Made by a program: the position numbers and the translations under genes. The notes beneath the pieces were generated by a model, which was given only the letters and a program-made list of their open reading frames with translations, did not search any database and was not told the DNA's origin. Of a DNA stretch of 39,383 nucleotides, positions 2,199-31,400 are shown piece after piece. The stretch lies in NCBI GenBank assembly GCA_944372275.1, contig CALVYO010000001.1:1-39383 (forward strand), given 5' to 3'. Origin of the DNA: an uncultured Bacilli bacterium. GTDB taxonomy: Bacteria > Bacillota_I > Bacilli_A > RF39 > UBA660. Numbering within the stretch: the first letter of the stretch is position 1; every line of letters starts with the position of its first letter.

Positions 2199-2223
2199 CA
2201 AAAAAAAGAATGTTTATTCATTC
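2199..2223 (-). terminator. weak intrinsic terminator after the 534-aa gene
   Basis: Minus strand reads GAATG-aataaa-CATTC followed by TTTTTTTT. The stem is only 5 bp and the stop codon lies in the loop. Confidence 0.35.
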
Positions 2224-3971: not shown

Positions 3972-5018
3972 CTATTCATATCCTTGTGTATCTTTAATAA
4001 AATTCAATGAAATATATATTTCAGCACCATCAGAATCTGTTTCCAAACTATCGATATCTTGTCCTTCAATCCAAACATAAACACGAGTTTTGGTAATACC
4101 GTCTGGAACTGTAAACAATGGTACTTCAAAATCTTCATCAGTCATCGTTTCTTGTAGTTCAAAATAATTTGGATCAAGATTTGGTGAACCTGATACTGTA
4201 TTAGCAACAAATATTGGTCCACCAGCCCTAGTAAATGCATAAGTTGGAAATTCTTGGCCATTTACTAAATTAACGCCATACTTTGTTGCTCTTTCAATTG
4301 ATAAATCTGAATGATCTTTGCTATTTGGCTCAAAAATAATCGAATAACAATTATTATTACAAGATATATTCTGAACTTCAGTAGCAGAAGCATCTTTAGC
4401 AACAGACCCCATTTTAACAATTCCAACTCGTGAAGAATTTAATAAACCGACCATTTCTTCATCAGGATTTTCTTCAATTGTAATTGAAGTTCCATAATCA
4501 AAATACAAATTATCACTAGTTGGTGATCCTGAATCATTTTTAAAAAACAAATCAAATGCTATATAGTTATTGTACTCATTTCTTCCACCTTCATGCATTA
4601 AATTAGTCCGTACATAACCATTTTCTTTATCTTTATTAGGATACCTAACACCGCTACTTGCAAACATATTAAATATTGGACTATCGTGATTAGTTATTCC
4701 ATTTGAAGAAATAGGAACTAAACCTCCACCAGCCCATTGACTAGTATTATTAGGATAAGTATATCTTAATCCTCTAATAAGTTCATCAGCTGATATAACT
4801 ATATCAGTATCAAAATTAATGCCATCTAATGAGATTGATAATCCCGTATTCTTTTTAACTGTCATTGTAAATGTTTTTACTCTAACATTTAAATTGGTTG
4901 AAAACCACGCATATGTTGAAAAAATAAGCAAAATACCTATTATTACCATAATAGTAATCGTTACTTTTTTGTTAGTTTTTTCAATTATTCTTTTTTTTAA
5001 AGTATTTTGTTTTTTCAT
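3972..5018 (-). CDS. secreted TasA/camelysin-like fibre-subunit paralog, class D (D1, 348 aa)
   Basis: Basic N-terminus, TM helix, then FSTYAWFSTN. Shares GLSISLDG, GGLVPISS, YIAFDLFFKNDSG, FEPNS, PTYAF and ITKTRVYVWIEGQDID blocks with the B and C proteins. RBS is GGTGGTGA. Confidence 0.8.
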   Translation of the reverse strand: MKKQNTLKKRIIEKTNKKVTITIMVIIGILLIFSTYAWFSTNLNVRVKTFTMTVKKNTGLSISLDGINFDTDIVISADELIRGLRYTYPNNTSQWAGGGLVPISSNGITNHDSPIFNMFASSGVRYPNKDKENGYVRTNLMHEGGRNEYNNYIAFDLFFKNDSGSPTSDNLYFDYGTSITIEENPDEEMVGLLNSSRVGIVKMGSVAKDASATEVQNISCNNNCYSIIFEPNSKDHSDLSIERATKYGVNLVNGQEFPTYAFTRAGGPIFVANTVSGSPNLDPNYFELQETMTDEDFEVPLFTVPDGITKTRVYVWIEGQDIDSLETDSDGAEIYISLNFIKDTQGYE

Positions 5019-5079
5019 TTTTCACCACCTAATTAATAAAGGAAGAGTAATTAACCAAATTACTCTTCTTTATTATCAA

Positions 5080-6402
5080 TTATTCACCATTTGTTGGAGT
5101 AATATCTGTACTTGGTCCATCATATCCTGGAATATCTGCTTCAGTATATCTTTCTTTAGTGAATCCAAAATTAACTGTAATTTTCTTTCCTAATGATGCA
5201 AAATCATAGTTATCTACATCTTGACCTTCAATCCAAATGTAAACTCTTACTTTTGTAATACTATTTGGCGCTAAAGTCATAAATTGTGGACGATCTTTAC
5301 CAGCTATATTTTTCATTGTATCAGTAAAGTATCCAATTCCAGCATCTTCATCATAAGTCATATCAACTAAATTATAAGTACTTCTATCATCATCATTATA
5401 ATAAGTTGTATAATCGATTGTTGATTTAGTATAACCATTGTATGCTGCGCCATCATAAATATTAATATTATCAGCAATAGCAATTTCATTACTTATTGCA
5501 TATGTTGGATATGCTTGATTTAATTCAACAGTAGCACAATGACTACCTGCATTATATGAAGCAGCATCATTAACATCATCACCATCTGCTTTTCTTGTTA
5601 AACAAGATTTATCATACCAATTAACAGCATTTTGCACATGCACAGAATCATTTGGTTCCCAAATTCTTGCTTCTCTACAAATACCGGTTACTTGAACTTG
5701 TCCATCAGCAGCAGGAACATCAGAACAAGTAATTTTTGTAATGTTACTTACAGATTCAGTATCTGCTTTAACACGACCAATTTGTGCGAATGCAACCCTT
5801 ACAGAATTTTCAATACCTGCTTTTTCTTCGCCATCAGCAGCAACAGTAACTGCAGAATTAGTAGTTAAATAAATTGCTTCTTCGTTTAATGGATTATTTT
5901 GAGTATAATATTCATTACCTGATAAGTTTTTAATGAATAAATCGAATGCAACATAGCCATTACCTTCAACATATTCAGCAGAACCACTACCAACTTGTGT
6001 AGTATGATTATCAACTTGACTAGCTAATAATCTATAACCACCTGTAACAGCAGTCAAACTTCCTTTTTCATATAATTTCATTCTTGAAGAATTTTTATCC
6101 ATATCACCTACAGATGACATTGGAATTAATCCTTCATCTTCGCCATCTAACCATTGGTTAGCATGTCCAGTATAAGCATCAGCATTTCTAGCATCTAAAG
6201 TATATTTCCATTTTTGACCATCCATTGATAGGTATAAGCCTTCAGTTGTTGCTATATTAACGCTAAATTCAGCTACATTAACAGTTTTCATACCTATAAA
6301 CCAAGCATAGGTTGAAACTGATAATAAGATAGCACATAAGCAACACATAGCAACTAAATTTCTAACTTTTTTGCTTTTTTTAGCATTATATTTTTTTGCC
6401 AT
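5080..6402 (-). CDS. secreted TasA/camelysin-like fibre-subunit paralog, class C (C1, 440 aa)
   Basis: N-terminus K-rich, TM, then SVSTYAWFIGMKTVNV. C-terminus reads ITKVRVYIWIEGQDVDNYDFASLGKKITVNFGFTKE. Four conserved Cys. RBS is AGGAGGAA. Closest paralog is C2. Confidence 0.85.
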   Translation of the reverse strand: MAKKYNAKKSKKVRNLVAMCCLCAILLSVSTYAWFIGMKTVNVAEFSVNIATTEGLYLSMDGQKWKYTLDARNADAYTGHANQWLDGEDEGLIPMSSVGDMDKNSSRMKLYEKGSLTAVTGGYRLLASQVDNHTTQVGSGSAEYVEGNGYVAFDLFIKNLSGNEYYTQNNPLNEEAIYLTTNSAVTVAADGEEKAGIENSVRVAFAQIGRVKADTESVSNITKITCSDVPAADGQVQVTGICREARIWEPNDSVHVQNAVNWYDKSCLTRKADGDDVNDAASYNAGSHCATVELNQAYPTYAISNEIAIADNINIYDGAAYNGYTKSTIDYTTYYNDDDRSTYNLVDMTYDEDAGIGYFTDTMKNIAGKDRPQFMTLAPNSITKVRVYIWIEGQDVDNYDFASLGKKITVNFGFTKERYTEADIPGYDGPSTDITPTNGE

Positions 6403-6428
6403 ATTTCCTCCTATATATAATTTTAGTA

Positions 6429-6459
6429 AACTAGAAGATTTTAATTAAATCTCCTAGTT
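6429..6459 (-). promoter_or_regulatory. intercistronic 12-bp hairpin between B1 and C1
   Basis: aactagaagatt (6429-6440) pairs with aatctcctagtt (6448-6459), giving one G-U on the minus-strand RNA. There is no U-tract on the coding (minus) strand. The B2-C2 junction has no equivalent. Confidence 0.45.
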
Positions 6460-6468
6460 ACTTATTTT

Positions 6469-7710
6469 TTATTCACCTGATGTTGGTCTCTTATCAACAT
6501 CTACTGGTAATTGTGGATCACCATCATATTCAATATCTTCACCATATAATTGTTCTTTAGTGAATCCGAATGAAACTGAGATTTGTCCTCCTAATGAAGC
6601 AAAATCATAGTTATCTACATCTTGACCTTCAATCCAAATATAAACTCTTACTTTTGTAATACTATTTGGTGCTAAATAGAATAATTCAGGTCTTTCAGTT
6701 CCTTTTAAATTTTTCATTGAATCTGTGAAAGTAGATACTTTCATTAATTTACCATCTTGTGCAGTAGTACTAACCGAAGTTGTCCAACTATTATATTCAG
6801 CGCCATCATATACATCTACTCCATCTGTATAATTAATTACACCACTTACTGCATATGTTGGAACGAATGTACCATCACTAACAGTACCACAAGTACCATT
6901 AAATGAAGCAGGATCTGTAATAGTTTGAGCAATTCTTTTTACACATGATGTAGTATACCAATTAATAGCATTTTGAACGTGTTTAGTATCGTTTGGTTCC
7001 CAAATTGTAGCATCACGATTAGCACAAATGGCAGATACACCATTACCACCAGTACAATCAATACCTTGAATTTTTGCAGTATTTTCTTCCGTAGCAATTA
7101 CACGACCAATTTGTGCGAAAGCAACTCTTACTGAATTTTCAATACCTGCAGTTTCTTCACCAGCAGCACCAGTTTTAACAGCTGATTGTGGAGTTAAATA
7201 AATTCCTTCTTCATTTAAAATATTAACTTCATCATAATATTCATTACCTGATAAGTTTTTAACAAATAAGTCAAATGCAACATAACCATCTTGTTCAGCA
7301 TCAGTATTTTCAACTTTACTTGCCATTACACGATAACCACCAGGTGAAGCAGTAAAGCTACCTTTTTCATATAAAATCAAATTTGATGAAGTAGTATCGA
7401 TTTTTCCAACTGATGACATTGGAATTAATCCATCACCACCCCAACTATTAGTATTTGTTAAATATGTTCCATCACCAGGAGTGTTATAATTATCTTCGTT
7501 AATTGTCACAGAATCACTGAAAGTCGTACCATCTAATGAAAGTGATAATCCATCGATAGCAGCAATTTTTACATCGAAAGCAGTAACATTAACAGTTTTC
7601 ATACCAATAAACCATGCATAGGTTGAAACTGATAAAATGATAGCACATAAACCAGTTCCAACAAGTAATCTTTTAACACGCTTTTCGTGTCTCTTATTTC
7701 TTTTTTCCAT
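6469..7710 (-). CDS. secreted TasA/camelysin-like fibre-subunit paralog, class B (B1, 413 aa)
   Basis: N-terminus MEKRNKRHEKRVKR, TM, then SVSTYAWFIGMKTVNV. C-terminus reads ITKVRVYIWIEGQDVDNYDFASLGGQISVSFGFTKE. Four conserved Cys. Confidence 0.85.
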   Translation of the reverse strand: MEKRNKRHEKRVKRLLVGTGLCAIILSVSTYAWFIGMKTVNVTAFDVKIAAIDGLSLSLDGTTFSDSVTINEDNYNTPGDGTYLTNTNSWGGDGLIPMSSVGKIDTTSSNLILYEKGSFTASPGGYRVMASKVENTDAEQDGYVAFDLFVKNLSGNEYYDEVNILNEEGIYLTPQSAVKTGAAGEETAGIENSVRVAFAQIGRVIATEENTAKIQGIDCTGGNGVSAICANRDATIWEPNDTKHVQNAINWYTTSCVKRIAQTITDPASFNGTCGTVSDGTFVPTYAVSGVINYTDGVDVYDGAEYNSWTTSVSTTAQDGKLMKVSTFTDSMKNLKGTERPELFYLAPNSITKVRVYIWIEGQDVDNYDFASLGGQISVSFGFTKEQLYGEDIEYDGDPQLPVDVDKRPTSGE

Positions 7711-7730: not shown

Positions 7731-8429
7731 TTAATAATTTTCAACATACTCTGAATTAAAGTCCATATAAACAGAAAATTCACCACCTAAGATATCGTCT
7801 GTACATTCAGGATCACTACCTTCAACCCAAATGACAATTGTGTATTTATCGATATCTCCTGGTTTAAAATTATCAACCTTATTACGGGCAACTAAACTTT
7901 CTTCTAAAAATGCAGTCGTATCTGGCTCATTGGCTCCATTTTTAGCAGCTTTAGCATAAGTAATTTGGTCTCCATTACGATAAACTCTAATTCTAACAGC
8001 ATCGTCGATTTCTTTGATAACATCTGTGATAAAAAGTTCTCTCCAATAGCTAGTAATCTCATTTCCAATATTCTCAACAAAAAATGTGTAAGCAAGGTAT
8101 TCTGTACCGTTATGTGACCCCCCGTCACTTTCATTTAAATCATTAGGTAACCAATTACCAGATATATTTGTAAATGTCTTAGGTGAAGCGATTGATAATT
8201 CTGCTCGATACACTTTATAGTCTGGATCATCGTAAATGACAATACCTCTACTAAAGTATAAGTTTTTATCAAGTGTTATACTAAAATTACCACTATTATA
8301 AATAATACCTATAACCACATACAAAAGAATAAATAGGAAAAGGATTACTAATAAAGCTATTCGAAAGATTTTTTTGAGTTTTTTTTCAGTTTTGATTTTC
8401 TTTGAATTAAGCTTAATCTTGTTTTCCAT
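7731..8429 (-). CDS. membrane-anchored TasA-like protein, class A (A1, 232 aa), first gene of cassette 1
   Basis: K-rich N-terminus and a long TM (IFRIALLVILFLFILLYVVIGIIY), but no (S/T)-(Y/L)-(A/S) motif. C-terminus YTIVIWVEGSDPECTDDILGGEFSVYMDF resembles the B/C/D C-terminal strand motif. RBS is GAAGGGG. Confidence 0.8.
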   Translation of the reverse strand: MENKIKLNSKKIKTEKKLKKIFRIALLVILFLFILLYVVIGIIYNSGNFSITLDKNLYFSRGIVIYDDPDYKVYRAELSIASPKTFTNISGNWLPNDLNESDGGSHNGTEYLAYTFFVENIGNEITSYWRELFITDVIKEIDDAVRIRVYRNGDQITYAKAAKNGANEPDTTAFLEESLVARNKVDNFKPGDIDKYTIVIWVEGSDPECTDDILGGEFSVYMDFNSEYVENY

Positions 8430-8733: not shown

Positions 8734-9345
8734 ATGAGAACAAAATTTAAAATTTTGATGGTAATTAGTTCTTTGGCTTTCACACTAAGTCTTATGAGTA
8801 ATACTTACTCAAGATATGTTGCTGATGTTGATGGCGATATTGAATTATTATTCGCAAAATGGCAAATACTTGTTAATGATAGTGATATCACTAATAACAC
8901 TACAACTTCTATTAATATAACTCCAGTTATGGAAGAAAATATTAATGTTGCTGATAATACCATTGCTCCTTCTTCTAAAGGTTATTTTGATATCGAAGTT
9001 GATCCATCTAATGTTGGTGTTTCTTTCAACTATAACATTACTTTAGATGTTGTTAATGAAAATCTACCTGATTTAATAATAAGTAAGTACGCTATATTAG
9101 ATAGTGATTATATCGAAGGTGATCAAATAACTACAACCACTATTTTAAATAATATTATAAATGGAACTGTTGATTATACTGATACCTTAGAACCATTTAA
9201 AATTAGAGTTTACTTTGAATGGTATGAAGGTGCTGATGAAGTTATGGATGATACAACTGATACTAACATTGGTTATGAAGCTACTTTAAATGATACTTCA
9301 TTATTAGTAAATGCAACAATAAGTTTCGAACAAAAAATTAATTAA
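8734..9345 (+). CDS. small secreted TasA/camelysin-like protein (203 aa)
   Basis: Signal peptide ends in MSNTYSRYVAD. Contains IAPSSKGYFDIEV, typical of the first strands of camelysin/TasA-type domains. C-terminus reads IRVYFEWYEGADEVMDDTTDTNIG...NATISFEQ. RBS is AAGAAGGG. Confidence 0.8.
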   Translation: MRTKFKILMVISSLAFTLSLMSNTYSRYVADVDGDIELLFAKWQILVNDSDITNNTTTSINITPVMEENINVADNTIAPSSKGYFDIEVDPSNVGVSFNYNITLDVVNENLPDLIISKYAILDSDYIEGDQITTTTILNNIINGTVDYTDTLEPFKIRVYFEWYEGADEVMDDTTDTNIGYEATLNDTSLLVNATISFEQKIN

Positions 9346-9389: not shown

Positions 9390-10226
9390 TTAACTATTCT
9401 TTTCATTAAAATATAAATTTTTAATTCTATCTAAAGCATCTTTAATATATTGACAACTAATCTTATATTGTTCAAAAACAATTTCAAATCCATTTTCATC
9501 ATCACATACAAAATTCCAATAATCTTTACCAATCAATAATTCTTCATCACAAAAAAATTGTTGTACTCTTTCTTGTTTCCAAATTTTATCTTCACCATAT
9601 TTATTGTATGCTGTAGCAAAAAATATATTTATTTTATCGTCTGATTCCAATAATTTATTTTTTAACAAAAAATATTCTTGTAATAATTCACTTTTTTCTG
9701 CCTTAGCCTTTTTATTATCTAAATCACCACCTGATTTTAATTCTATTACATAATGTTCCTTAGTTGAAGGGTTATAAAAATAATTATCTGTTTCGTGAGT
9801 TTTCATATAACTTTCTAAATTTTTAGGTTGGACACAATAAAAGTTGTTATAATCTTCTACACTAGGTTTAACATGTTTATCATATTCAGTAAGCAAATAA
9901 TCAATGTGTTGAGTCTGCTGAGGTAATAAATATGATTCTATTTTTCCCCTTACTTCATAAGATAAATTAGCAATAGAATTTCCTATATTTTCCAACACTT
10001 TACCAAAACTAGAATCAAATGATCTAACAAAGGCTGAATAAAACATAAATTCTTTACCTAATTCAGCAATAAAAACATTATTTTTTTTAGAATTAATAAC
10101 ACCGTCCGGATTATTAACCTCAGAAGCATATCTAAGTTCGAAGCCTTCAGCAAAATTTTTTATTCCTAAATCAACTATCTGTTTTATTGCAGTAATTTTA
10201 TGCTCTTTTAATAATTCTTCGGTCAT
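9390..10226 (-). CDS. candidate type II restriction endonuclease (278 aa)
   Basis: Starts 3 nt after the methyltransferase stop, with RBS AAGGAGG. Contains a PD-(D/E)xK-like arrangement (..THETDNYFY..EHYVIELKSGGD). Specificity unknown. Confidence 0.55.
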   Translation of the reverse strand: MTEELLKEHKITAIKQIVDLGIKNFAEGFELRYASEVNNPDGVINSKKNNVFIAELGKEFMFYSAFVRSFDSSFGKVLENIGNSIANLSYEVRGKIESYLLPQQTQHIDYLLTEYDKHVKPSVEDYNNFYCVQPKNLESYMKTHETDNYFYNPSTKEHYVIELKSGGDLDNKKAKAEKSELLQEYFLLKNKLLESDDKINIFFATAYNKYGEDKIWKQERVQQFFCDEELLIGKDYWNFVCDDENGFEIVFEQYKISCQYIKDALDRIKNLYFNEKNS

Positions 10227-10228
10227 TT

Positions 10229-11362
10229 CTAATCCTCCTTGTAGTTAGTAATTATTAAATGTTCAACATTTTTATTATTTCTATTTTGAAAACTTACCAA
10301 ATATTTTTTGTCAAATGATGATATATAAAATCCAGCATCTTTATATAAATTATAAATAAATTCTGTATTTTTAATTATTAACATAAATTTTGCTTTTGTT
10401 TTTTTTAAATAATTAAACAACCTTATTTGATCATTTTTATTAAAATCATTTTGTGCATAAGTTGAAAATTCAGTATCATAAGGTGGATCTAAAAACATAA
10501 AATCTTCTTTTGTTAAATTTATTTTATTACAAAATTCTTCAAAATCTAAATTGTATATTTCAGTTTTTTTCATATAATTTTTTATTTTTTCAGATGAAAT
10601 ATAATCTATTTTCTTTTTAAAATCTTTCTTATTATAACTTATGCCACCATAAGGAACATTAAATTTTCCTTGTTTATTATACCTAAACATTGATGCATAA
10701 CAATACTCTCTAATAAAATAAAAAATGGCTGATGAAAATTCTTTATCAATATCTAATTCATTTCTATAATTATACAAATATCTAAAGTGCATATAAAATG
10801 CACTTTTTAATGCTGATTCTAAATTATCTAATATATTTTTTTCAGTAAGTTTTCCTTTTTCTTTTTCAATTTTATTCATTCGACAAATTTTAGAATAAAA
10901 ATTTTTTTGGATTTCGTGAATAAAATTGTCAATTCTTATATTAAAACTTTCAGTTAATACACCATTAAATTCACTTGAATGTTGAATAACAAAATCACAA
11001 ATTTTATCATTATATTTAATTTTTTTTATTTTATCGATAGATGTTTCTTTACAAAATTTTTTATATAAGTTTAGTAATTCTTTTGCATTATTATCTATAA
11101 TTTTTTCAAGTAACATCCAATTATGATATAGTTCATTTAATTTATTAATAAATTTTTTATTATTATCTTTTATATATTTATATAAATTTATTAATTCGTC
11201 AGACTTATCATTTATAATTGAATTATTACAATTTAATGCAAAGTATACTGCCCCACCGCCAACAAAAGGTTCAACATATCTTGTAAAATTTTTCGGAATA
11301 TTTTCTAAAATAACAGATAATTCTTTTTCTTTGCCACCAGCCCATTTAATAAATGATTTCAT
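10229..11362 (-). CDS. Dam-class (alpha-group) N6-adenine DNA methyltransferase
   Basis: FIKWAGGKEKE and EPFVGGGAVYF (AdoMet motif I region) lie near the N-terminus, and FLDPPYD (motif IV) near the C-terminus. The start is trimmed to the ATG at 11362 (MKSFIKWAGGK) behind GAGGTG. The ORF-track start at 11404 has no RBS. Confidence 0.85.
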   Translation of the reverse strand: MKSFIKWAGGKEKELSVILENIPKNFTRYVEPFVGGGAVYFALNCNNSIINDKSDELINLYKYIKDNNKKFINKLNELYHNWMLLEKIIDNNAKELLNLYKKFCKETSIDKIKKIKYNDKICDFVIQHSSEFNGVLTESFNIRIDNFIHEIQKNFYSKICRMNKIEKEKGKLTEKNILDNLESALKSAFYMHFRYLYNYRNELDIDKEFSSAIFYFIREYCYASMFRYNKQGKFNVPYGGISYNKKDFKKKIDYISSEKIKNYMKKTEIYNLDFEEFCNKINLTKEDFMFLDPPYDTEFSTYAQNDFNKNDQIRLFNYLKKTKAKFMLIIKNTEFIYNLYKDAGFYISSFDKKYLVSFQNRNNKNVEHLIITNYKED

Positions 11363-11394
11363 TTTAAACACCTCATTTTTTGTGTTACATAAAT

Positions 11395-11423
11395 ATACTA
11401 TCATACAAACATATGTATGTCAA
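11395..11423 (-). promoter_or_regulatory. promoter of the R-M operon
   Basis: Minus strand reads TTGACA (11418-11423), 17 nt, TAGTAT (11395-11400). Confidence 0.5.
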
Positions 11424-11432
11424 TAAAAATTG

Positions 11433-11457
11433 ATAAAAATGTGCATCTAAACACATT
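11433..11457 (-). terminator. intrinsic terminator after the SipW-like pseudo-peptidase gene
   Basis: Minus strand reads AATGTG-8 nt-CACATT followed by TTTTT, directly after the stop at 11458-11460. Confidence 0.5.
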
Positions 11458-11997
11458 TTATTCTTCAACATCAACTTCATCGCCATATTTAATTTCAACG
11501 ATTAATGCATATAATTCATATATAAATATTAAGAAACAAGGTACTAATACGATGAATAAAAATCCCCATTGTGATTCTATTATATTTAATACTGTTCCGA
11601 TATCATTATATACTTTAGTAGGACGACCAATTAAATATTTTAATGAATATGGATCACCATTTTCTAGAGTAATTACTTGATTATCAACATTAACTTCTCC
11701 TACTTTACCAATGTTGATGTCAGCTGTTTTAGACATTTGATCTACTTTATAAACAAACACTGTTTCGCCTACTTGCAAATTTTCTGGTGCCGCTTCTTCA
11801 ACTAATACTAAATCACCCTTTTGAAAATCCTCATGGCTTACTTTATCTTTTAAAATTACTAATGAAGTTTCACCAAATACGGTTACACGATAGTCATTAA
11901 AGTTTAATAATAAAACTGTCATAACTAAAGCGAAAGAAAAATAAATTACTCCAAATGTTACGATTAATACTTTTTTTATTGTTTTTAATGCTTTCAT
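11458..11997 (-). CDS. SipW-family paralog lacking the catalytic Ser and His boxes (pseudo-signal-peptidase, ~179 aa)
   Basis: Same architecture as SipW: N-terminal TM, beta-rich ectodomain, C-terminal TM (FLFIVLVPCFLIFIYELYALIV). Where SipW has SGSMEP this protein has VILKDKVSHED. Where SipW has THR(I/V) it has VFVYKV. The QKGDLVLV and ENGD blocks are retained. I prefer the start at 11997 (GGAGGT RBS); 12015 is the alternative. Confidence 0.65.
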   Translation of the reverse strand: MKALKTIKKVLIVTFGVIYFSFALVMTVLLLNFNDYRVTVFGETSLVILKDKVSHEDFQKGDLVLVEEAAPENLQVGETVFVYKVDQMSKTADINIGKVGEVNVDNQVITLENGDPYSLKYLIGRPTKVYNDIGTVLNIIESQWGFLFIVLVPCFLIFIYELYALIVEIKYGDEVDVEE

Positions 11998-12005
11998 AAT
12001 ACCTC

Positions 12006-12854
12006 CTAATTGCATTCTATTTCTAATAAAGAAAATTCATTTACATCATAAGTTGCTGATTTATCTACTTTATAAAATATGTAACTTAAATTATCTTTAC
12101 TAGGAATTTCTAAAATTATTTCATTAATATAACCATTTTGCATATTATAATTGGTTATATTATCTTTATCGATTCTTAATTTGTTAGCATCCCAATTAAT
12201 TTTTACACATTTTTTATCATCGGATGAATTTGTTATTGTTAGTCTATCATAATTATTAAAACTTTGATAAGTCATATCTGTTTTTTCAACTAATGTTTTA
12301 TCTTTTTTTAAAATAAATGTTCCGGTTAAAGTCTTTTCATATGGCTCAATACTTACTACTTCGATATCTGCAGTTACATTATCAGTTGCTATATCAAAAT
12401 AGATATCAGCAGTAGATTTTTGAATTACCCAATTATATCCCTTTGATTCGCAAGTTGCTTTATCAAAATCTGTCGTATCTACGCCATCATTTTTATTATT
12501 AATACAAGTATTATAACTTGATAATGTCCCATAATAAGTATTAGAATCAGTACCATTTATTTTGCAATCAGTACCATCTGATAATGTACAAGTAACTTTA
12601 TATTTTATGTCATAGTCTGTTATAGCTGCCTCATTTATTGAATTTGTTAAATTGAAATGAACGCTCGTTCCATCCCAAACATTATTGACATTTTTAACAT
12701 TATCACCTAGTTTATCACTACTTAAATAAAATCCTTGAGAATTTAAGTAGTAGTTCCATACTGAATTAGAAATGTACTTTGCTAAAGTTAAACCATTGGT
12801 TATTAATAATACTACAGTTAAAAGAACTACACCTATAATTAAATATTTTCGCAT
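12006..12854 (-). CDS. secreted protein with SipW-type signal (282 aa), Cys-rich
   Basis: Signal MRKYLIIGVVLLTVVLLITNGLTLAKYISN. Its ATG abuts the stop of the upstream gene (TAAATG) behind AGGTGA. Asn/Thr-rich mature part. Confidence 0.75.
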   Translation of the reverse strand: MRKYLIIGVVLLTVVLLITNGLTLAKYISNSVWNYYLNSQGFYLSSDKLGDNVKNVNNVWDGTSVHFNLTNSINEAAITDYDIKYKVTCTLSDGTDCKINGTDSNTYYGTLSSYNTCINNKNDGVDTTDFDKATCESKGYNWVIQKSTADIYFDIATDNVTADIEVVSIEPYEKTLTGTFILKKDKTLVEKTDMTYQSFNNYDRLTITNSSDDKKCVKINWDANKLRIDKDNITNYNMQNGYINEIILEIPSKDNLSYIFYKVDKSATYDVNEFSLLEIECN

Positions 12855-13391
12855 TTAATCACCTAACTTCTGCCAACTATTAATTTCTACATCGATAAAA
12901 TCAGCTAAATTTGTATATTCTAAAGAATTATATTCACTTGGAAATGTCAATTTTATTTTATAATTATCTAATATTTCTGTATTATGACTTAGTGTCTGAA
13001 CACTTGAATTACATACCAATTCATCAAATTCGTTTCGCGAATAAGTTTCATCACAATTCATTATTAATTCTTCTGATTCGCCTTCTTTATATAATTCAAT
13101 AGTTAAAGGCATAAAATGATATGTTTTTATAGTTATTTGATATTCAACTGTTACATTACTTAATTTTTCTTCTTTATTTGTAACAGAAAACATATATTCT
13201 TCGACACTTCCTGGATTTAAATTATTTAAGTTTAATTCTAAATGATCTAATTGTTTACTTTCGAAAACAAATTTAGCTATTTTTTGATCGACATTAATAT
13301 TACTATCGGAATAGAAGATAGAATATGTAACGCCAGTACCTAAAAATATTGCTATTAAAATGAATAGAATTATCAATACTTTATGTTTCAT
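12855..13391 (-). CDS. small secreted TasA/camelysin-like protein (178 aa)
   Basis: Signal ends in GTGVTYSIFYSD. LNPGSVEEYMFSVTN matches the l.PG....f.v.N strand typical of camelysin/TasA domains. Ends in EINSWQ. RBS is AGGAGGAG. Confidence 0.8.
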   Translation of the reverse strand: MKHKVLIILFILIAIFLGTGVTYSIFYSDSNINVDQKIAKFVFESKQLDHLELNLNNLNPGSVEEYMFSVTNKEEKLSNVTVEYQITIKTYHFMPLTIELYKEGESEELIMNCDETYSRNEFDELVCNSSVQTLSHNTEILDNYKIKLTFPSEYNSLEYTNLADFIDVEINSWQKLGD

Positions 13392-13400
13392 TTTCTCCTC

Positions 13401-16400
13401 CTATCTTACGATAAATTTCTTTTCTATTGTTCCTATTTTTGTAGTTCCATCATATAGTTCGAAAACAAATTTATAGCCACCTTGCATATTAATTAAATCT
13501 AATTGTTGTGGCAAAGTGTAATAATTATCAGTAATCTTATTTAATGATGTTGTTGTATAATTACCTAAATCAATCAATGTATAATCTTGATTATAAGCAG
13601 TTAATTGTTGTTTTTTATATAATGATACTCGAATATATGGATCAGTAAATGTTCCTGTTTTAGTTATATCAAAATTAACAATATCATCAGTAATTACATT
13701 ATTAAAATCTACATTAAAACCATAATCAGTAGTAATATTATTAGTAACAATTACTGGGATTGTAATTTCATTACTATATTCATTACCATACATTCCATCA
13801 TATGAGGATATAGCCTTAATTTTAATATAATATGTCCCGGATAATAACTTGCTATTATCAATTGATGTTGTTATTTCGATATTACCAATATCATTAATTC
13901 GAACTATACCATCATTATTTGGTGAATATTCTTTATTATTAACTTTAAAAGTTAGATTTTTTAAATATTCTTTAGCAACTATATTATCATTACTATCGAC
14001 TAATTTAATATTTAAACCAATTATCTTTTCAGCATAAGTTGTATCGATGATATCTTGACCATTAATCATTCCATAATTGATATTATGAGCAATATCGATT
14101 ATATTTGTTGAATCACTGTTATAAATTATTGAATTACTATAATTAGAACTAATCGTAATATTAGTTTCGCTATCGTATATATTAAATAATTTTTCAGTTT
14201 GTTTTAATGTTTTTATTATACCATCTTGATTATTTAACTCCATTGTAATATTTATATCTTCTAATGTTTCAACCGTATTAAATTCGATCATTAATGTGAA
14301 GTTTTCATTAATTTGACCAGTATAATTATTTTCATCAAATAAATTAGTTGAACCAACTTCACTAAATGAAGTTAATGGATAAGTTGTTATTAAAGTATCG
14401 ATGATATAAGTATAAACTTTATTTTTATTATTATCGATTAAAGTTAATTTAGTATTAAGTGGTAAAGCAATATTAGTTATAATACTATGTGTTTTTAAAT
14501 CATTATATTGATAATTAGAATTATAACTTAATTCTAATATCATTTTAGAATTGTTAGTTATATTATTGCTTGTAGTTATTTGATTAATTTGATAGCCTTC
14601 ATATATTATATATTCACTATTAACATAAGTTACATAATCGGCGTTATCGACTACTTTAGCATATAAAATATATGTTCCTTGATTATTTATTGTTACTTTA
14701 TCACTATAAGTATTCCAACTAACATTATTTAATTGTTCTTCAGTTAATACTTCTTGCGCTAAATGATATTCGATACTTTTTATACCAGATAAATTATCAG
14801 TAGCCGTTATCGTTATATCTTTACTTTCATTTATGTAATTTTTAATAATTGGTGTGGTTAAACTTTGCCAAGATTTATCATCCATACTAATAACCACATC
14901 TGAACCAGATAAATCTAAAATAATTAAATCTGTATTTAAATAATAAATATTATCGTTATTATCTACTACTTTAGCATATATAACATATTTTCCCTCATCT
15001 TTAATTTCGACGATATTTTCATAAGGGATCCAAGTTAAATTATTTATCTCAGCATTACTTAAAACTTTATCACTTATGTAATAACTTACTTCTTTAAAAG
15101 GTCTTAAAGCATCAACTTGTTCGATACTAAAAACCGTACTACTATTTAATTTAATTGTGTTTAATTCATAACCTAAATTATCCCAAGTATAAGATCCTAA
15201 ATGAATATTAGCGATTGGACTTGCAATATCATCAATAGCTAAAATCGGATAACTTCCTTCTTCATAAATCCAAATATTATCTTCATTATTAAGTAAATCA
15301 TCGTTATCGATAAATTCATTAAATTGTAAATTAGTTAAAACATAATCTTTAGTTTTTAAATTATTTATATCAGTTAAAATAGGACCAGTAACTAATCCTT
15401 CATTAACGATATTTCCTGAAGTATAATAAACATTTTCGATATTTAAGGTTTCATTTACATTATTAAATAAATATGTCGTATCAGTAGCAAAAGAATTTTT
15501 TAAATTAATTGTTCCATTTATATCATTTATTAAATAATCAGTAGTTCCAACACTATAACTTTTATCGATATTAGATGTACCATTTATACTTGTTACTAAG
15601 CCTGTTGTTGTATCTCCAGTAAGTGTTCCATTATTATAGGCTCTGTTAATATTGATATTATTTGTATAACCTAATAAACCACTACTTATTTTTCCATAAA
15701 TTGAACCTTTATTAATAACATTAGTAATAATCGTATCGTTTGCATTGGCAACAATACCACTAGTTATATTTGGATTATAAGTAACTTCATAAGTTAAATT
15801 AGAAATTAAAGTATTAGTATCAATAGTTATTTTATTTACTTTTCCTAAATCTAAACTAAATTCACCAGTAACTTCACTTTCATTAATTAAAATTGTATCT
15901 GTTATATTACCTTTAACAATTACATTAGTAATATTTCCTGCTATATAAGGAATAGCAATTTCGGTTAAACTACTTACTTCAGGAATGTCATAACTTTCTG
16001 TTTTAGTAGTTAATTCATTATTACTTACTACATAACCGTTATATAAAATATTAGTTAAAGATGCGTTAGTACTATCAGTAGCAATACCAGCAGTAACATT
16101 TCCACCATAAATCATCGCATTTTCAACATATAAATTACTTACATTACCACTTAAATTAGTAAACAAACCTACTTCTTCATTTTGATTAGTAATATATAAT
16201 CCATATATACGATATGAATTACCATTTAAATAACCTTTAAAATTATCTAAAGATTCAAATAGATTAATTGTTTTAATTTTAGTACCTGTATAATCTTTAT
16301 TATCATATACTTCATTAGTATATTCTTTTATGTAAAAAATCGTATTATTTATTTTATATTTAATTCCTTCTTCATCATAACTAAATATACCATCATTTAA

Positions 16401-16691
16401 AACAATATCATTATTTAATTCGAAATATGTATCTTGATAATCTTCAGTTTTAAGCATACTAGCAAAATAAGCAAGTTCATTACCATTTGAAATTATATAT
16501 GGATCAGTACTTGTTCCTGTTCCCTTTCGATAACTAGTAGCCACATTACCATCCCATACTTCAATTTCATTAATTGATGTTCTATTTTGATAGCGGGCCA
16601 AACTAGGTATCATAATTGATAAAATTAATATAAATACTAAAATCAAAATTAAATAATTTTGTTTAGGTATTTTATTTAATATACTCTTCAT
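13401..16691 (-). CDS. 1096-aa secreted beta-helix (GLUG-like) and Ig-like-repeat surface protein with SipW-type signal
   Basis: TM/signal ends in IPSLARYQNR. Then GTGTSTDPYIISNGNELAYFASML and VGLFTNLSGNVSNLYVEN-type repeats follow, suggesting a right-handed beta-helix or GLUG-type region. Two tandem ~90-aa repeats follow (..NNLTWIPYENIVEIKDEGKYVIYAKVVDNNDN.. and ..NNVSWNTYSDKVTINNQGTYILYAKVVDNADY..). No LPXTG or other wall-anchor motif. Confidence 0.8.
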   Translation of the reverse strand: MKSILNKIPKQNYLILILVFILILSIMIPSLARYQNRTSINEIEVWDGNVATSYRKGTGTSTDPYIISNGNELAYFASMLKTEDYQDTYFELNNDIVLNDGIFSYDEEGIKYKINNTIFYIKEYTNEVYDNKDYTGTKIKTINLFESLDNFKGYLNGNSYRIYGLYITNQNEEVGLFTNLSGNVSNLYVENAMIYGGNVTAGIATDSTNASLTNILYNGYVVSNNELTTKTESYDIPEVSSLTEIAIPYIAGNITNVIVKGNITDTILINESEVTGEFSLDLGKVNKITIDTNTLISNLTYEVTYNPNITSGIVANANDTIITNVINKGSIYGKISSGLLGYTNNININRAYNNGTLTGDTTTGLVTSINGTSNIDKSYSVGTTDYLINDINGTINLKNSFATDTTYLFNNVNETLNIENVYYTSGNIVNEGLVTGPILTDINNLKTKDYVLTNLQFNEFIDNDDLLNNEDNIWIYEEGSYPILAIDDIASPIANIHLGSYTWDNLGYELNTIKLNSSTVFSIEQVDALRPFKEVSYYISDKVLSNAEINNLTWIPYENIVEIKDEGKYVIYAKVVDNNDNIYYLNTDLIILDLSGSDVVISMDDKSWQSLTTPIIKNYINESKDITITATDNLSGIKSIEYHLAQEVLTEEQLNNVSWNTYSDKVTINNQGTYILYAKVVDNADYVTYVNSEYIIYEGYQINQITTSNNITNNSKMILELSYNSNYQYNDLKTHSIITNIALPLNTKLTLIDNNKNKVYTYIIDTLITTYPLTSFSEVGSTNLFDENNYTGQINENFTLMIEFNTVETLEDINITMELNNQDGIIKTLKQTEKLFNIYDSETNITISSNYSNSIIYNSDSTNIIDIAHNINYGMINGQDIIDTTYAEKIIGLNIKLVDSNDNIVAKEYLKNLTFKVNNKEYSPNNDGIVRINDIGNIEITTSIDNSKLLSGTYYIKIKAISSYDGMYGNEYSNEITIPVIVTNNITTDYGFNVDFNNVITDDIVNFDITKTGTFTDPYIRVSLYKKQQLTAYNQDYTLIDLGNYTTTSLNKITDNYYTLPQQLDLINMQGGYKFVFELYDGTTKIGTIEKKFIVR

Positions 16692-16894: not shown

Positions 16895-17003
16895 TTTTTT
16901 AATGCTACTTAGTAGCATTATTATTATATGCTAAAAAGCATAATATAATCGCTTACGCAATAATAATATATCACAATAAAAATAAAATGTCTATATTTTA
17001 TCG

Positions 17004-17032
17004 AAAAAAATATCACACAATTTGTGTGATAT
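17004..17032 (-). terminator. strong intrinsic terminator after C2
   Basis: Minus strand reads ATATCACACA-aatt-TGTGTGATAT followed by TTTTTTT, 5 nt after the C2 stop. Confidence 0.8.
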
Positions 17033-17036
17033 TAAA

Positions 17037-18368
17037 TTATTCATTTGTTGTTGGAACATCTGGTCCATCATAATCTGGGAAGTCAGATTGATTATATCTT
17101 TCCTTAGTGAATCCAAAGTTAATTGTAATTTTCTGTCCTAATGATGCGAAATCATAGTTATCGATATCTTGTCCTTCAATCCAAATATATACTCTTAATT
17201 TAGTAATACTGTTTGGAGCTAAAGTCATAAATTGTGGACGATCTTTACCAGCAACATTTTTCATTGTATCAGTAAAGTATCCAGTTCTTGTTGTTGCATC
17301 ATAAGTCATATCGATTAATTTCATATCAGCTTTTCCGCCTACTCCAGCAGAAGCAGCATTATATTCTACTAATGTTTTAGTATTAGCAGCATATTTATTA
17401 TAAGCTAAACCATCATAAACATTTACGTTATCAGCAATAACAATTTCACGACTAATTGCATATGTTGGATATGCAGTAGTTGTATTTAATGTAGCACAAG
17501 ATGTACCTTCTGAATAAGAACCTGCAGCATTAACATCTGCGCCTGTTCTTTCTAAACAAGATTCTTTATACCAATTTAAAGCATTTTGAACGTGTTTAGT
17601 ATCATTTGGTTCCCAAATAGCAGCATTACGGCAAATACCTGTAACGTGTTGTGGATTATTAACATCATCTTCACTATCAGCACAAGTCATACTTGTAACT
17701 AAATCTTGAATATCTTCATCATCAGTATCTAAAGCTGCACTAACGCGTCCTAATTGTACAAATCCAACTCTTACTGAGTTTTCAATACCAGCATTACCTT
17801 CACCATCTAAGGCAACAGTAACTGCTGAATTAGTATTTAAGTAAATTGCTTCTTCGTTTAAAACATTATCTTCTGGATAATATGCTTCACCAGATAAGTT
17901 TTTAACGAATAAGTCGAATGCTATATAACCATTACCTTCTTCGTATTCGATACCACCAGCATTTTGTGTAACGTTATTGTCAACACGACTTGCTAATAAT
18001 CTATAACCACCTGTAACAGCAGTTAAACTTCCTTTTTCATATAATTTCATTCTTGAAGATGCTTCATCCATCTCACCAATTGAAGACATTGGAATTAATC
18101 CTTCATTTGTTCCATCTAACCATTGGTTAGCATGGTTTGTATAAGCTGGTGTATTTTTAGCATCTAGAGTGTAACGCCAATCAGCTCCATCCATTGATAA
18201 ATATAACCCTTCAGTAGTAGCAATATTAATATCAAATTCAGTAACATTAACAGTTTTCATACCTATAAACCAAGCATAGGTTGAAACTGATAATAAAATA
18301 GCACATAAAGCACAAATTGAAACTAGATTTTTAATTTTTTTACTTTTCTTTAATTTTCTATTTTTCAT
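17037..18368 (-). CDS. secreted TasA/camelysin-like fibre-subunit paralog, class C (C2, 443 aa)
   Basis: SVSTYAWFIGMKTVNV, then ITKLRVYIWIEGQDIDNYDFASLGQKITINFGFTKE. Collinear with C1 along its full length. RBS is AGGAGGT. Confidence 0.85.
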   Translation of the reverse strand: MKNRKLKKSKKIKNLVSICALCAILLSVSTYAWFIGMKTVNVTEFDINIATTEGLYLSMDGADWRYTLDAKNTPAYTNHANQWLDGTNEGLIPMSSIGEMDEASSRMKLYEKGSLTAVTGGYRLLASRVDNNVTQNAGGIEYEEGNGYIAFDLFVKNLSGEAYYPEDNVLNEEAIYLNTNSAVTVALDGEGNAGIENSVRVGFVQLGRVSAALDTDDEDIQDLVTSMTCADSEDDVNNPQHVTGICRNAAIWEPNDTKHVQNALNWYKESCLERTGADVNAAGSYSEGTSCATLNTTTAYPTYAISREIVIADNVNVYDGLAYNKYAANTKTLVEYNAASAGVGGKADMKLIDMTYDATTRTGYFTDTMKNVAGKDRPQFMTLAPNSITKLRVYIWIEGQDIDNYDFASLGQKITINFGFTKERYNQSDFPDYDGPDVPTTNE

Positions 18369-18378
18369 CTTTTACCTC

Positions 18379-19776
18379 CTAATTAATTGTCCATATATCA
18401 TCTACTCGCGTAGCTGTTTTTTTAACTCCACCATCTTCGAATGTAAATTTCGTCATCCAATTTGGTAAAGTAAATAATTTATTGTCATTATCATAAGTAA
18501 TTTTTGAATTTGAAATGTTGGTTATTTCACCCGTATTGATATAAGATACTGTTTGGTCTCTTACGACATCATCTGGTAATTCTGGATCACCATCATAATC
18601 AATATCTTCCCCATAGAATCTTTCTTTAGTAAAGCCGAATGATACAGATATTTTTCTGCCTAAAGATGCAAAATCATAATTATCAACATCTTGTCCTTCT
18701 AAGTAAATATAAATTCTTACTTTAGTAATACTATTAGGAGCAAGTGTTATAAATTCTGGTCTATCGACACCTTCATTCATTTTATCGGTATCAGTGAAGT
18801 AATCTACTTTATATAGTTTACCTGCTTTATATGTTGTCGATATCGATTTAGTATAACCATTATATTCTTTTCCATCATACACATCGACATTATCATCATA
18901 ATCGATAACACCACTTACTGCATATGTTGGATAGTAAACACCATCTTTAATGGTATTGCAAGTTCCTTTAAAAGAATTAGGATTGGTTATATCATCACCG
19001 ATTCTTTTACGACATGAAGTAGTATACCAACTAATAGCGTTGGTAACGTGTTTAGTATCGTTTGGTTCCCATATTGTAGCATCACGATCAGCACATATTC
19101 CTGTAACATTGCTATTAGATTTACAAGTAATGCCTGTAATTACACTAATATCATCTTCAACTGCAACTACTCGGCCAATTTGGGCGAATGCTACTCTTAC
19201 AGAATTTTCGATACCTGCTTTTATTTCTCCCCCATCTTCTGCGGCTTTTACCTCGGAAGCAGGATCCAAATAAATAGCTTCCTCATTTTTTTTGTTAAGT
19301 TCTGGATAATAAGCAATTCCAGATTTATTTTTAATAAATAAGTCGAATACTACATATCCATCAACTTCTTTAGCACCGGTGTTTTCTACTCTAGCAGCCA
19401 TTACACGATAACCACCAGGTGATGCTGTAAAACTTCCTTTTTCATACATAATAAGTCTTGATGAGCCAGTATCAATCTTACCAACTGATGAAACAGGAAC
19501 TAATCCTTTGCCACCCCAACTGTTAGTGTTTCCTTTATAACTTGCAGTTTTATAATTGTCTTCATTAATCGTTACGGTCGTTTCCCAATTTTCACCATCT
19601 AACGATAGTAATAAAGTATCAATCGCTGCAATATGAACATCAAAACTAGAAACATTAACAACCTTCATACCAATGAACCAAGCATAAGTAGAAACTATTA
19701 GGATTATCGTACATAAAACAGCAGCAACAAGTAATTTTTTTACTTTTGTTTCATGTTTCTTTTTTCTTCTTTTCAT
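18379..19776 (-). CDS. secreted TasA/camelysin-like fibre-subunit paralog, class B (B2, 465 aa), with extra C-terminal ~50 aa
   Basis: IVSTYAWFIGMKVVNV, then ITKVRIYIYLEGQDVDNYDFASLGRKISVSFGFTKE. A tail follows (..SYINTGEITNISNSKITYDNDNKLFTLPNWMTKFTFEDGGVKKTATRVDDIWTIN) that B1 lacks. Confidence 0.85.
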   Translation of the reverse strand: MKRRKKKHETKVKKLLVAAVLCTIILIVSTYAWFIGMKVVNVSSFDVHIAAIDTLLLSLDGENWETTVTINEDNYKTASYKGNTNSWGGKGLVPVSSVGKIDTGSSRLIMYEKGSFTASPGGYRVMAARVENTGAKEVDGYVVFDLFIKNKSGIAYYPELNKKNEEAIYLDPASEVKAAEDGGEIKAGIENSVRVAFAQIGRVVAVEDDISVITGITCKSNSNVTGICADRDATIWEPNDTKHVTNAISWYTTSCRKRIGDDITNPNSFKGTCNTIKDGVYYPTYAVSGVIDYDDNVDVYDGKEYNGYTKSISTTYKAGKLYKVDYFTDTDKMNEGVDRPEFITLAPNSITKVRIYIYLEGQDVDNYDFASLGRKISVSFGFTKERFYGEDIDYDGDPELPDDVVRDQTVSYINTGEITNISNSKITYDNDNKLFTLPNWMTKFTFEDGGVKKTATRVDDIWTIN

Positions 19777-19791
19777 AATCCCTTCTTTCCC

Positions 19792-20484
19792 TTATTCTGC
19801 TTCGATTGGTTTAAAATTCATACGAACTTTAAATTCTCCACCTAATATATTGTCGGTACAATCAGGATCTTCGCCTTCAATCCATAAAACGATTGTATAC
19901 TTATCCACAGCATTAGGTTCAAAAGAATCAACATCATTACTCATAATTACTTCATCAGTTAAGAAAGGAACTGTATTAGGTTCAGCATTTCCTTCACTTG
20001 ACAATTTAGCATAAGTTTGATATTCTCCGTTCTTATAAATTCTAACTCTGATGGCAGCATCAACATTTTTGATAACATCATCGATTAAAACTTCACTTGT
20101 ATAGCCAGCAACTTCATCTCCTGTATTTTCAATATAAAATGTATATATCAAATAACTATCGCCATTATGTGAACCACCTTCGTAATCTTCGATATCTTCA
20201 GGTAGCCAAATTTCCTTAATGCTATCGAATGTTTTAGGTGCTTTAGCGAGTAGTTCTGTTCGATATACTTTATATTGAAAATCATCATAGATAATTATGC
20301 CATTATTCAAATAAAGATTTTTATCGAGTGTTATGCTAAAATTACCACTATTATAAATAATACCTATTACAAAATATAAAATAAGTAAAAGTAGAAGTAA
20401 TAAGAGCACGGCAAGTTTGAATCTTTTTTTTAGTTTTTTCTCTTTTTTTAATTTATCGGTAGTTTTAGTAAATTTACTTTCCAT
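19792..20484 (-). CDS. membrane-anchored TasA-like protein, class A (A2, 230 aa), first gene of cassette 2
   Basis: Collinear with A1: ..VIGIIYNSGNFSITLDKNLY.., GGSHNG, AIRVRIYKNG, KYTIVLWIEGEDPDCTDNILGGEFKVRMNF. Confidence 0.8.
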   Translation of the reverse strand: MESKFTKTTDKLKKEKKLKKRFKLAVLLLLLLLLILYFVIGIIYNSGNFSITLDKNLYLNNGIIIYDDFQYKVYRTELLAKAPKTFDSIKEIWLPEDIEDYEGGSHNGDSYLIYTFYIENTGDEVAGYTSEVLIDDVIKNVDAAIRVRIYKNGEYQTYAKLSSEGNAEPNTVPFLTDEVIMSNDVDSFEPNAVDKYTIVLWIEGEDPDCTDNILGGEFKVRMNFKPIEAE

Positions 20485-31265: not shown

Positions 31266-31400
31266 CTAATTACATTTAAGTGGTCTTATATAACCATCGA
31301 TAACACCGATTAAAAATATAATTCCTGCTCCTATTAATAAACCGGTACCTAAACCACCACCAGATATTTTTTGTAATTCATTTTTTTCTAACCTTGCCAT
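31266..31400 (-). CDS. double-glycine-leader bacteriocin prepeptide (44 aa; not in the ORF track)
   Basis: Reads MARLEKNELQKISGG / GLGTGLLIGAGIIFLIGVIDGYIRPLKCN. The leader has L(-12), E(-8), L(-7), I(-4) and GG. The mature part has tandem GxxxG motifs. The ATG overlaps the 3' end of the accessory gene, and the stop overlaps the RBS of the next peptide. Confidence 0.75.
   Translation of the reverse strand: MARLEKNELQKISGGGLGTGLLIGAGIIFLIGVIDGYIRPLKCN

Follow-up and report, generated by a model that had tools for sequence, protein, structure and literature searches.

Why would a bacterium retain, next to genes for secreted proteins with SipW-type signals, a signal peptidase homolog that appears unable to cut? 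This question is raised by a 39,383-nucleotide (nt) stretch of DNA from an uncultured Bacilli bacterium (contig CALVYO010000001.1 of GenBank assembly GCA_944372275.1), hereafter referred to as the window. An earlier note, made by reading the letters without database searches, had pointed to a gene at positions 11458..11997 on the minus strand as a paralog of SipW that has lost both catalytic boxes. We refer to the product of this gene as pseudo-SipW. Our analysis, which draws on the open reading frame (ORF), its homologs, profile–profile alignment with hhalign, an AlphaFold (AF2) model, Foldseek comparison and the ratio of nonsynonymous to synonymous substitution rates (dN/dS), supports the assignment of pseudo-SipW as a SipW/Sec11-type (MEROPS S26B-like) signal peptidase paralog without the Ser/His dyad.

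The coding sequence (179 amino acids (aa) plus stop) is an intact ORF of 179 codons (MKALKTIKK...DEVDVEE) that ends with a TAA stop codon at 11458..11460. The ATG at 11997 matches the MKxL start common to orthologs. A longer ORF could start from an in-frame ATG upstream, at 12015, but since orthologs begin at MKxL, this codon is unlikely to be used.

Fold and homology to SipW and Sec11

The relationship of pseudo-SipW to signal peptidases is apparent only by profile–profile and fold comparison and not by sequence-only searches. A Pfam scan of the protein gave zero matches, and both phmmer and a profile search of PDB sequences returned noise only, with SEC11A at E 0.82. The NCBIfam model TIGR02228 (archaeal/SipW-type signal peptidase I, sigpep_I_arch) matched residues 17-103 below its threshold (21.9 bits, cutoff 51.85; E 1.3e-4), and the SipW equivalog NF046067 gave a faint match to the C-terminal transmembrane (TM) helix (13.9, cutoff 190). 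Using hhalign, we compared the pseudo-SipW family (alignment A1, 36 sequences) with the active SipW-like family (alignment A2), the latter made up of homologs of the SipW-like N-terminal domain encoded by the ORF at 75..2117 in the same window. Two runs related the families with 95% probability (E 3e-8 to 4e-8) over 135-139 columns. The A2 profile in turn matches human SEC11C and SEC11A (E 2e-8 and 3.5e-8, respectively), with the Ser, His and GDxN boxes aligned.

The AF2 model of pseudo-SipW, built on A1, has a mean predicted local distance difference test score (pLDDT) of 84.2 and comprises a helix (2-31), eight strands within 39-130 and a second helix (133-176). Its best Foldseek match in the PDB is SEC11A (7p2p_A; E 1.4e-3, probability 1.0, 147 columns), followed by SEC11C (7p2q_A, probability 1.0) and then by the inactive Streptococcus pyogenes SipA (0.98), with SpsB lower. 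A model of the active paralog, used as a control (pLDDT 85.6), shows the same order of secondary structure elements and matches SipA, LexA, SEC11C/A and SpsB in Foldseek with E 1e-5 to 1e-3. Because the hhalign homology, the AF2 model and the active-paralog control agree, we conclude that pseudo-SipW has kept the fold and both TM helices. The earlier note had claimed as much and had added that the GD-containing strands are retained, which also holds: G61-D62, G77-(D/E)78 and N113-G114 are invariant or almost so.

The predicted topology is N-in, a TM helix, an extracytoplasmic beta domain of the S24/S26 fold, a second TM helix, and C-in. The N-terminal TM helix (about aa 10-31; 11905..11970, minus strand), delineated by model helix 2-31 and by conservation, ends in the conserved juxtamembrane motif LLLNxNxYGVTxFG. 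The beta domain (about aa 32-132; 11602..11904, minus strand) is defined by model strands 39-130, which are ordered as in the active-paralog model, and by the Foldseek matches. The C-terminal TM helix (about aa 144-169, WGFLFIVLVPCFLIFIYELYALIVEI; 11491..11568, minus strand), evident from the model and from conservation, is the most conserved part of the protein. Since the closest active relatives use TGSM/THR/GDAN and match SEC11, and since SEC11A and SEC11C outrank SipA and SpsB, pseudo-SipW lies outside the S26A branch. Compared with family S26B, it has the fold and the homology and lacks the Ser, His and Asp columns as well as a score above the curated cutoff.

Loss of the catalytic residues

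Both hhalign runs placed the nucleophile Ser of the active TGSM motif on K52, within the Ser-box remnant K50-D51-K52-V53 (11839..11850, minus strand). The replacement of an SGSM Ser box by KDKV, proposed in the earlier note, is thereby confirmed. Column statistics were derived for 271 family members, including 121 close and 150 distant homologs, and column 52 turned out to be K, E, D or N across the family. The catalytic His of the active ITHRV motif aligned in both runs with D93 (11719..11721, minus strand) in KTADINIG. This column is His in 41 of the 121 close homologs and otherwise S, T, D, K or N, and it is variable in distant ones; the His seen in some close homologs is apparently a relic. 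The conserved Asp of the GD(A/N)N box aligned with Q107, a position that is D or E in 73 of the 121 close homologs and variable in the distant ones.

The loss of the His had also been claimed before, on the grounds that ETVFVYKVD stands in place of the His box. It is true that the catalytic column (D93) holds no His, but that alignment was shifted by some 10 residues: GETVFVYKVD corresponds to box C (DDIVTFKQD) in the active enzyme, the GDxVxF strand that precedes the His box. The SipW strings quoted for comparison do not occur in the window, whose one active SipW-like domain forms the N-terminus of the product of ORF 75..2117.

The substitutions hold up across homologs, with no Ser/His pair conserved over the 271 members. 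Any G[ST]M within the first 120 residues is found in a single member, and Ser near column 52 together with His near column 93 in two, by chance. We also considered other residues that might have taken over. The Ser of GETSL (S45), which the earlier note had itself named as a possible catalytic residue, sits 7 columns ahead of the nucleophile position, and only 101 of the 150 distant members have S or T in its place; it was rejected as an alternative nucleophile. The S54-H55 pair (VSHED) was rejected too: aligning S54 needs two indels and the position is Ala in 44 of the 121 close homologs, while H55, the sole His of pseudo-SipW, is not conserved. Given the conservation data, an alternative catalytic dyad appears unlikely.

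Selection and constraint

Homologs of pseudo-SipW are numerous and all unannotated. There are 564 matches, mostly of about 175 aa, in a 90%-clustered database, and 896 representative clusters at E <= 1e-3 in a library clustered at 50% identity. Pseudo-SipW is under purifying selection: comparison with the three nearest genomic orthologs gives a dN/dS of 0.14-0.16, and the family has 31 invariant columns. Moreover, the strongest constraint has shifted from the former active-site ectodomain to the C-terminal TM helix. Among 84 orthologs, the mean top-residue frequency is 0.86 in this helix (144-169) and 0.58 in the ectodomain, and the helix has the consensus WGFLFIVLVPCFLIFIYExYALIVEI, followed by KYG. 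The active paralog from the same genomes displays the opposite pattern, its ectodomain (0.71) being more conserved than its TM helix (0.65).

A conserved gene cluster

A scan of one genome per species identified 80 loci, all in metagenome-assembled genomes. Most are labeled uncultured Bacilli, Tenericutes or Mollicutes, one is labeled Candidatus Coprovivens, and a minority bear other bin labels, such as Muribaculaceae or Clostridium. We take these genomes to correspond to the RF39-type gut lineage. With genes denoted by the lengths of their products in aa, the conserved order is [232]-[440/465 paralogs]-348-534-1096-178-282-pseudo-SipW-680 (SipW fusion)-...-203 (opposite strand). Pseudo-SipW directly follows the 282-aa gene at every one of 78 loci. 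Of 52 loci, 41 have the SipW-fusion gene 60-253 nt further downstream, and the other 11 carry an insertion of 1-7 kb at this point.

In the window, a Shine–Dalgarno sequence (AGGAGG, 12002..12007, minus strand), read directly from the DNA, lies 4 nt ahead of the pseudo-SipW ATG and shares bases with the TAG stop (12006..12008) that ends the 282-aa gene, leaving a gap of only 8 nt between the stop of one gene and the start of the other. The tight coupling to the 282-aa gene asserted in the earlier note is therefore real. Its description of pseudo-SipW as the last gene of the 1096-178-282 operon is likewise accurate for the window, but not for most relatives, in which the SipW-fusion gene comes next. 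In the window and its closest relatives (L004-L006), pseudo-SipW stays with 1096-178-282, and the block 203-232-413-440-348-534-680 comes after. In the window itself, the pseudo-SipW and SipW-fusion genes are about 9 kb apart, reflecting a rearrangement and the insertion of a restriction–modification pair. This pair occupies the very junction at which the SipW-fusion gene is found in most relatives. Because 11 of the 52 related loci carry 1-7 kb insertions at the same place, the junction looks like an insertion hotspot.

The inserted pair (9390..11404, minus strand) is of type II, lies directly downstream of pseudo-SipW and encodes an endonuclease of the TdeIII family (278 aa) and an N6-adenine methyltransferase of class D12; a promoter-like site at 11395..11423 was assigned to it by consensus match. 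An 87-aa ORF at 11417..11680 (plus strand), antisense to pseudo-SipW, is of low complexity and apparently a by-product of AT-rich sequence and not a gene.

Links to active SipW paralogs

The active paralog encoded by ORF 75..2117 (minus strand) is the 680-aa SipW fusion. Its SipW/Sec11-type peptidase domain (aa 1-170, nt 1608..2117), supported by Pfam S24, the A2 profile and the model, contains the motifs FFGYSVFEVQTGSM (TGSM), FITHRV and KGDAN. It is followed by a cytoplasmic part of ~500 aa, in which a Lys/Glu-rich linker joins the peptidase domain to a conserved cytoplasmic domain of about 330 aa. This domain has no Pfam or PDB-sequence match; a degenerate EAL domain, suspected by eye (GYKFAVDL...YIFIDK), was not supported by a PDB-sequence profile search or by Pfam scans of 12 orthologs. 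Relatives have, in addition, a third, stand-alone SipW of about 190 aa (SGSM, ITHxV) about 5 kb downstream, which would lie past the edge of the window.

The same cytoplasmic domain turned up in the pseudo-SipW family. Four distant members (P0151, P0153, P0196 and P0205; 616-741 aa) carry a C-terminal domain homologous to that of the SipW fusion (26-29% identity, E 1e-15 to 1e-23), and at locus L084 a fusion of the dead domain with the C-terminal domain ends the gene series 1073-181-284-212. These fusions show that the dead domain of one lineage and the active domain of another carry the same cytoplasmic domain. In a distant lineage (L085/L086), a dead SipW is followed by a 203-like protein with an overlapping start and then by an active SipW. 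The contexts of two distant homologs were read from contigs of only 2-3 kb.

We also compared evolutionary distances by the mirror-tree approach over 32 genomes. The distances of pseudo-SipW correlate with those of the SipW-fusion C-terminal domain (r 0.79, partial r +0.35) and of the 534-aa protein (r 0.73, partial r +0.30), whereas for its 282, 178 and 1096-aa mates r is 0.66-0.67 and partial r is -0.15 to -0.26.

Beyond the span covered by the window, the cluster runs on with four genes at one related locus (L001, 12663..17266), downstream of the SipW-fusion ortholog. Their products are a protein of 512 aa that has a TM segment and motifs like Walker A/B (GISGTGKTS and IILDEMNLA) but no Pfam match, a DUF2357 protein of 378 aa whose 29 bits exceed the gathering score, a third stand-alone SipW (225 aa, active), and a 399-aa protein whose signal reads SITLAWFAYSG. 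The pair of P-loop and DUF2357 proteins is reminiscent of McrBC-like modules.

Proposed role of pseudo-SipW and alternative explanations

Synteny, domain fusion and shifted conservation all favor a partner or receptor role beside the active enzyme. We consider it reasonably probable that pseudo-SipW is a non-catalytic accessory membrane subunit of the SipW machinery that binds signal peptides or partners. It would work without cutting, as a membrane-embedded helper to active SipW. Its conserved TM helices and retained beta-strand groove may bind the signal peptides or N-terminal segments of the 1096, 178, 282 and 203-aa pre-proteins, and it might also bind the active SipW-fusion protein. Substrates could thereby be presented, selected or timed for cleavage and for the assembly of a TasA-like surface fiber.

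Several observations weigh against this interpretation. In the window and in L004-L006, pseudo-SipW has been parted from the SipW fusion yet kept with 1096-178-282, which would fit a substrate chaperone equally well. The cluster also holds P-loop and DUF2357 proteins. The mirror-tree tie to the SipW-fusion C-terminal domain is weak, involves proteins that share a phylogeny, and is suggestive only. Finally, attempts to demonstrate peptide binding in vitro were unsuccessful even with the well-studied SipA (PMC4049620).

A more elaborate arrangement is possible but doubtful. Dead SipW might be the substrate-receptor or regulatory subunit of a heteromeric signal-peptidase complex, together with the SipW fusion bearing the cytoplasmic domain and the third stand-alone SipW, at the core of a hitherto undescribed TasA-like fiber machine of ~15 genes in uncultured, small-genome gut Bacilli. 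The shared C-terminal domain would then connect cleavage at the membrane to control in the cytoplasm, and further parts of the machine might include the 534-aa cytoplasmic protein, the TM-anchored P-loop protein and the DUF2357 protein.

The main rival to an accessory subunit is a stand-alone, SipA-like chaperone or platform, which would act independently of active SipW and hold an N-terminal (donor-strand-like) segment of the secreted 178, 282 or 1096-aa protein at the membrane, nucleating or anchoring the fiber. We regard it as rather unlikely, although much of the gene order agrees with it: the coupling to the 282-aa gene is constant and tight (78/78 loci, with the Shine–Dalgarno sequence overlapping the stop), and pseudo-SipW stays with 1096-178-282 when the cluster rearranges. 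In addition, the mature N-termini of the 1096, 178 and 282-aa proteins are highly conserved, the beta strands beside the former active site are retained, and there is a precedent in SipA, which is essential for pilus polymerization and keeps its peptide cleft (PMC4049620). A platform of this kind is, however, harder to reconcile with an ectodomain that is the least conserved part of the protein and a TM helix that is the most conserved one. It also leaves aside the fusions, which connect the dead domain with the cytoplasmic domain that the SipW fusion carries, as well as the distance matrix, which tracks the operon mates less than the SipW-fusion C-terminal domain and the 534-aa protein, if weakly.

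The remaining explanations are progressively less likely. Pseudo-SipW might be a decoy or negative regulator that binds SipW-type signal peptides without cutting them and so keeps, for example, the 1096-aa protein anchored in the membrane or delays its processing. Retention of the fold and TM helices despite the loss of catalytic residues agrees with such a role, conserved acidic residues near the cytoplasmic end of TM2 (E161 and E168) could meet the basic n-regions of signal peptides, and protein antagonists of signal-peptidase cleavage exist, as illustrated by SafA in Actinomyces (PMC9282373). Even so, a decoy is improbable: all four pre-proteins keep the small-x-small (-3, -1) motif typical of cleaved signals, and the co-linear arrangement of its gene with two active SipW genes suits cooperation at least equally well. 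It is more improbable still that the protein remains an enzyme through other residues, such as S45 or S118 with K60, or through a different chemistry. Within the close family these residues are indeed well kept (S45 is S or T in 120 of 121 members, K60 is present in 112 and S118 in 107), but in distant members the counts for S45, K60 and S118 fall to 101, 76 and 71 of 150. Added to this are the distance of S45 from the nucleophile column, the Ala found so often at S54, the nearest Ser, and the lack of an invariant Ser/Lys or Ser/His pair across the family. As for a decaying duplicate without function, which the lost catalytic residues and an active paralog adjoining in most genomes might bring to mind, we give it hardly any credence in view of a dN/dS of about 0.15, an ORF that is intact in 83 loci from different species, the 31 invariant columns, an almost invariant TM2 and the 896 representative clusters. 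An accessory subunit of the SipW machinery thus remains our preferred explanation.

Comparison with known systems

A close precedent for a signal peptidase that does not cut is S. pyogenes SipA (LepA, Spy0127; PDB 4N31). Like pseudo-SipW, it has a signal-peptidase fold without the dyad and is encoded within a surface-protein gene cluster. SipA adopts the signal peptidase I fold with Asp and Gly replacing Ser and Lys, its peptide cleft is conserved, and it is required for the assembly of its surface-fiber proteins, being essential for pilus polymerization; peptide binding or scaffolding has been proposed (PMC4049620). SipA is, however, a member of the P-type branch (S26A, Ser/Lys) with only one TM helix, and its partners are sortase-linked LPXTG pilins, whereas pseudo-SipW is of the SEC11/SipW type and has a second, highly conserved C-terminal TM helix, TasA/camelysin-like neighbors and active SipW paralogs. 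In Staphylococcus aureus SpsA, both catalytic residues are absent, the gene adjoins active spsB, and the protein has no peptidase activity (PMC12414704). The adjacency of spsA and spsB mirrors the tandem of pseudo-SipW and the SipW fusion seen in 41 of 52 related loci. However, SpsA is of the S26A type and has no dedicated substrate operon, while pseudo-SipW is of the S26B type and has its place among the ~15 genes of a conserved cluster.

Bacillus subtilis SipW (tapA-sipW-tasA) belongs to the same subfamily as pseudo-SipW. It has N- and C-terminal TM helices, an architecture also seen in pseudo-SipW, and it reportedly has a second role besides its peptidase activity (Terra et al. 2012, as cited in PMC4551309). 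Unlike pseudo-SipW, which is without both residues, it is an active Ser/His enzyme. The genomic logic is nevertheless the same, as in B. subtilis a dedicated SipW adjoins TasA-family proteins with a special signal peptide (PMC4551309, PMC9245690).

The best structural matches of pseudo-SipW, SEC11A and SEC11C, come from the eukaryotic signal peptidase complex (PDB 7P2P, 7P2Q). In this complex, the S26B catalytic subunit SEC11A/C works with the non-catalytic membrane subunits SPC12, SPC25 and SPC22/23. These accessory subunits are not SEC11 paralogs, and for pseudo-SipW a heteromer is only inferred.

In a limited literature search, we met no account of a dead SipW-type paralog or of this gene cluster; the dead signal-peptidase paralogs described there all belong to the S26A branch (SipA, SpsA). 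The pseudo-SipW family is large, unannotated and part of the SipW/Sec11 branch, and the evidence for a non-catalytic role at the membrane is unusually clear in it. Its informative features are the move of selection to the TM helix, the Rosetta-stone fusions to a cytoplasmic domain and the fixed place between dedicated substrates and active paralogs, which make it a tractable case for finding out what non-cutting signal peptidases do. The cluster as a whole points to an unexplored surface-fiber or secretion system in widespread uncultured gut bacteria, and may represent a new fiber-assembly system.

Secreted proteins and other genes of the cluster

The operon that contains pseudo-SipW starts with the gene for a 1096-aa secreted or anchored protein (..IPSLA/RYKNR; 13401..16691, minus strand), identified by an OmpL47-type domain, synteny and its N-terminal consensus. 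Two matches to OmpL47-type beta-barrel domains (43 bits; cutoff 40) are the only family assignment of the protein, whose N-terminus, ..IPSLARYKNR..VWDG, is kept across species. Upstream of the gene lie a promoter-like site (TAGACA-17-TATATT with TG; 16965..16993, minus strand) and, just upstream of that, a terminator-like hairpin (17009..17033), both of them consensus matches only. Next comes a 178-aa secreted protein (..GITYS/IF; 12855..13391, minus strand), a distant TasA/camelysin relative according to synteny and to Pfam matches of its orthologs: 7 of 19 weakly match Peptidase_M73 (TasA/camelysin family), with a best E of 9e-5. A search of PDB sequences with the 178-aa family profile gave zero matches. 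The 282-aa secreted protein (12006..12854, minus strand), the immediate upstream neighbor of pseudo-SipW, has a SipW-type signal (..GFTLA/KYVSNSVWNYYL). Signals of the same flavor are found in a 203-aa secreted protein (..MSNTYS/RYVA), recognized by its ORF and signal, which is encoded on the plus strand at 8734..9345.

A second signal flavor (..STYA/WFIGMKTVNV) was found by signal comparison in three paralogous secreted proteins (348, 440 and 413 aa; 3972..7710, minus strand). With further copies at 17037..19776 (minus strand), there are five such paralogs in total (348, 440, 413, 443 and 465 aa), sharing an almost invariant N-terminus, ..STYAWFIGMKTVNVxxFD. The window thus contains two SipW/TasA-like signal flavors, this one and ..[ST][LY][AS]/[RKI][YF] of the 1096, 178, 282 and 203-aa proteins. 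None of the five paralogs matched a Pfam or NCBIfam family; they are probably the main subunits of the structure built by the cluster. Each run of these paralogs is headed by one of two related proteins of 232 and 230 aa (7731..8429 and 19792..20484, both minus strand), in which a single TM segment precedes the conserved motif YNSGNFSITLDKNLY and which match no known family. The 534-aa cytoplasmic protein (2214..3818, minus strand) is assigned to the conserved cluster by synteny, and Pfam and NCBIfam scans of it gave no match. Family scans of all ORFs in the window detected neither a sortase nor a pilin family.

What remains of the window is ordinary chromosomal sequence from an organism of 25% G+C and includes genes for LexA, FtsK, enolase, a Mur ligase and RNase III. 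Besides pseudo-SipW and the SipW fusion, LexA alone among the proteins of the window has the S24/S26 fold, and its domain is intact (Pfam S24, E 4e-33). A gene for a DUF3800 protein adjoins lexA (22950..23666, minus strand, and 22118..22735, plus strand). At 31388..33854 (minus strand), the gene for a 677-aa ABC transporter, which has a C39 peptidase domain at its N-terminus, overlaps the start of a 151-aa ORF without a family. The transporter belongs to the bacteriocin/peptide-exporter type and has no relation to the SipW cluster.

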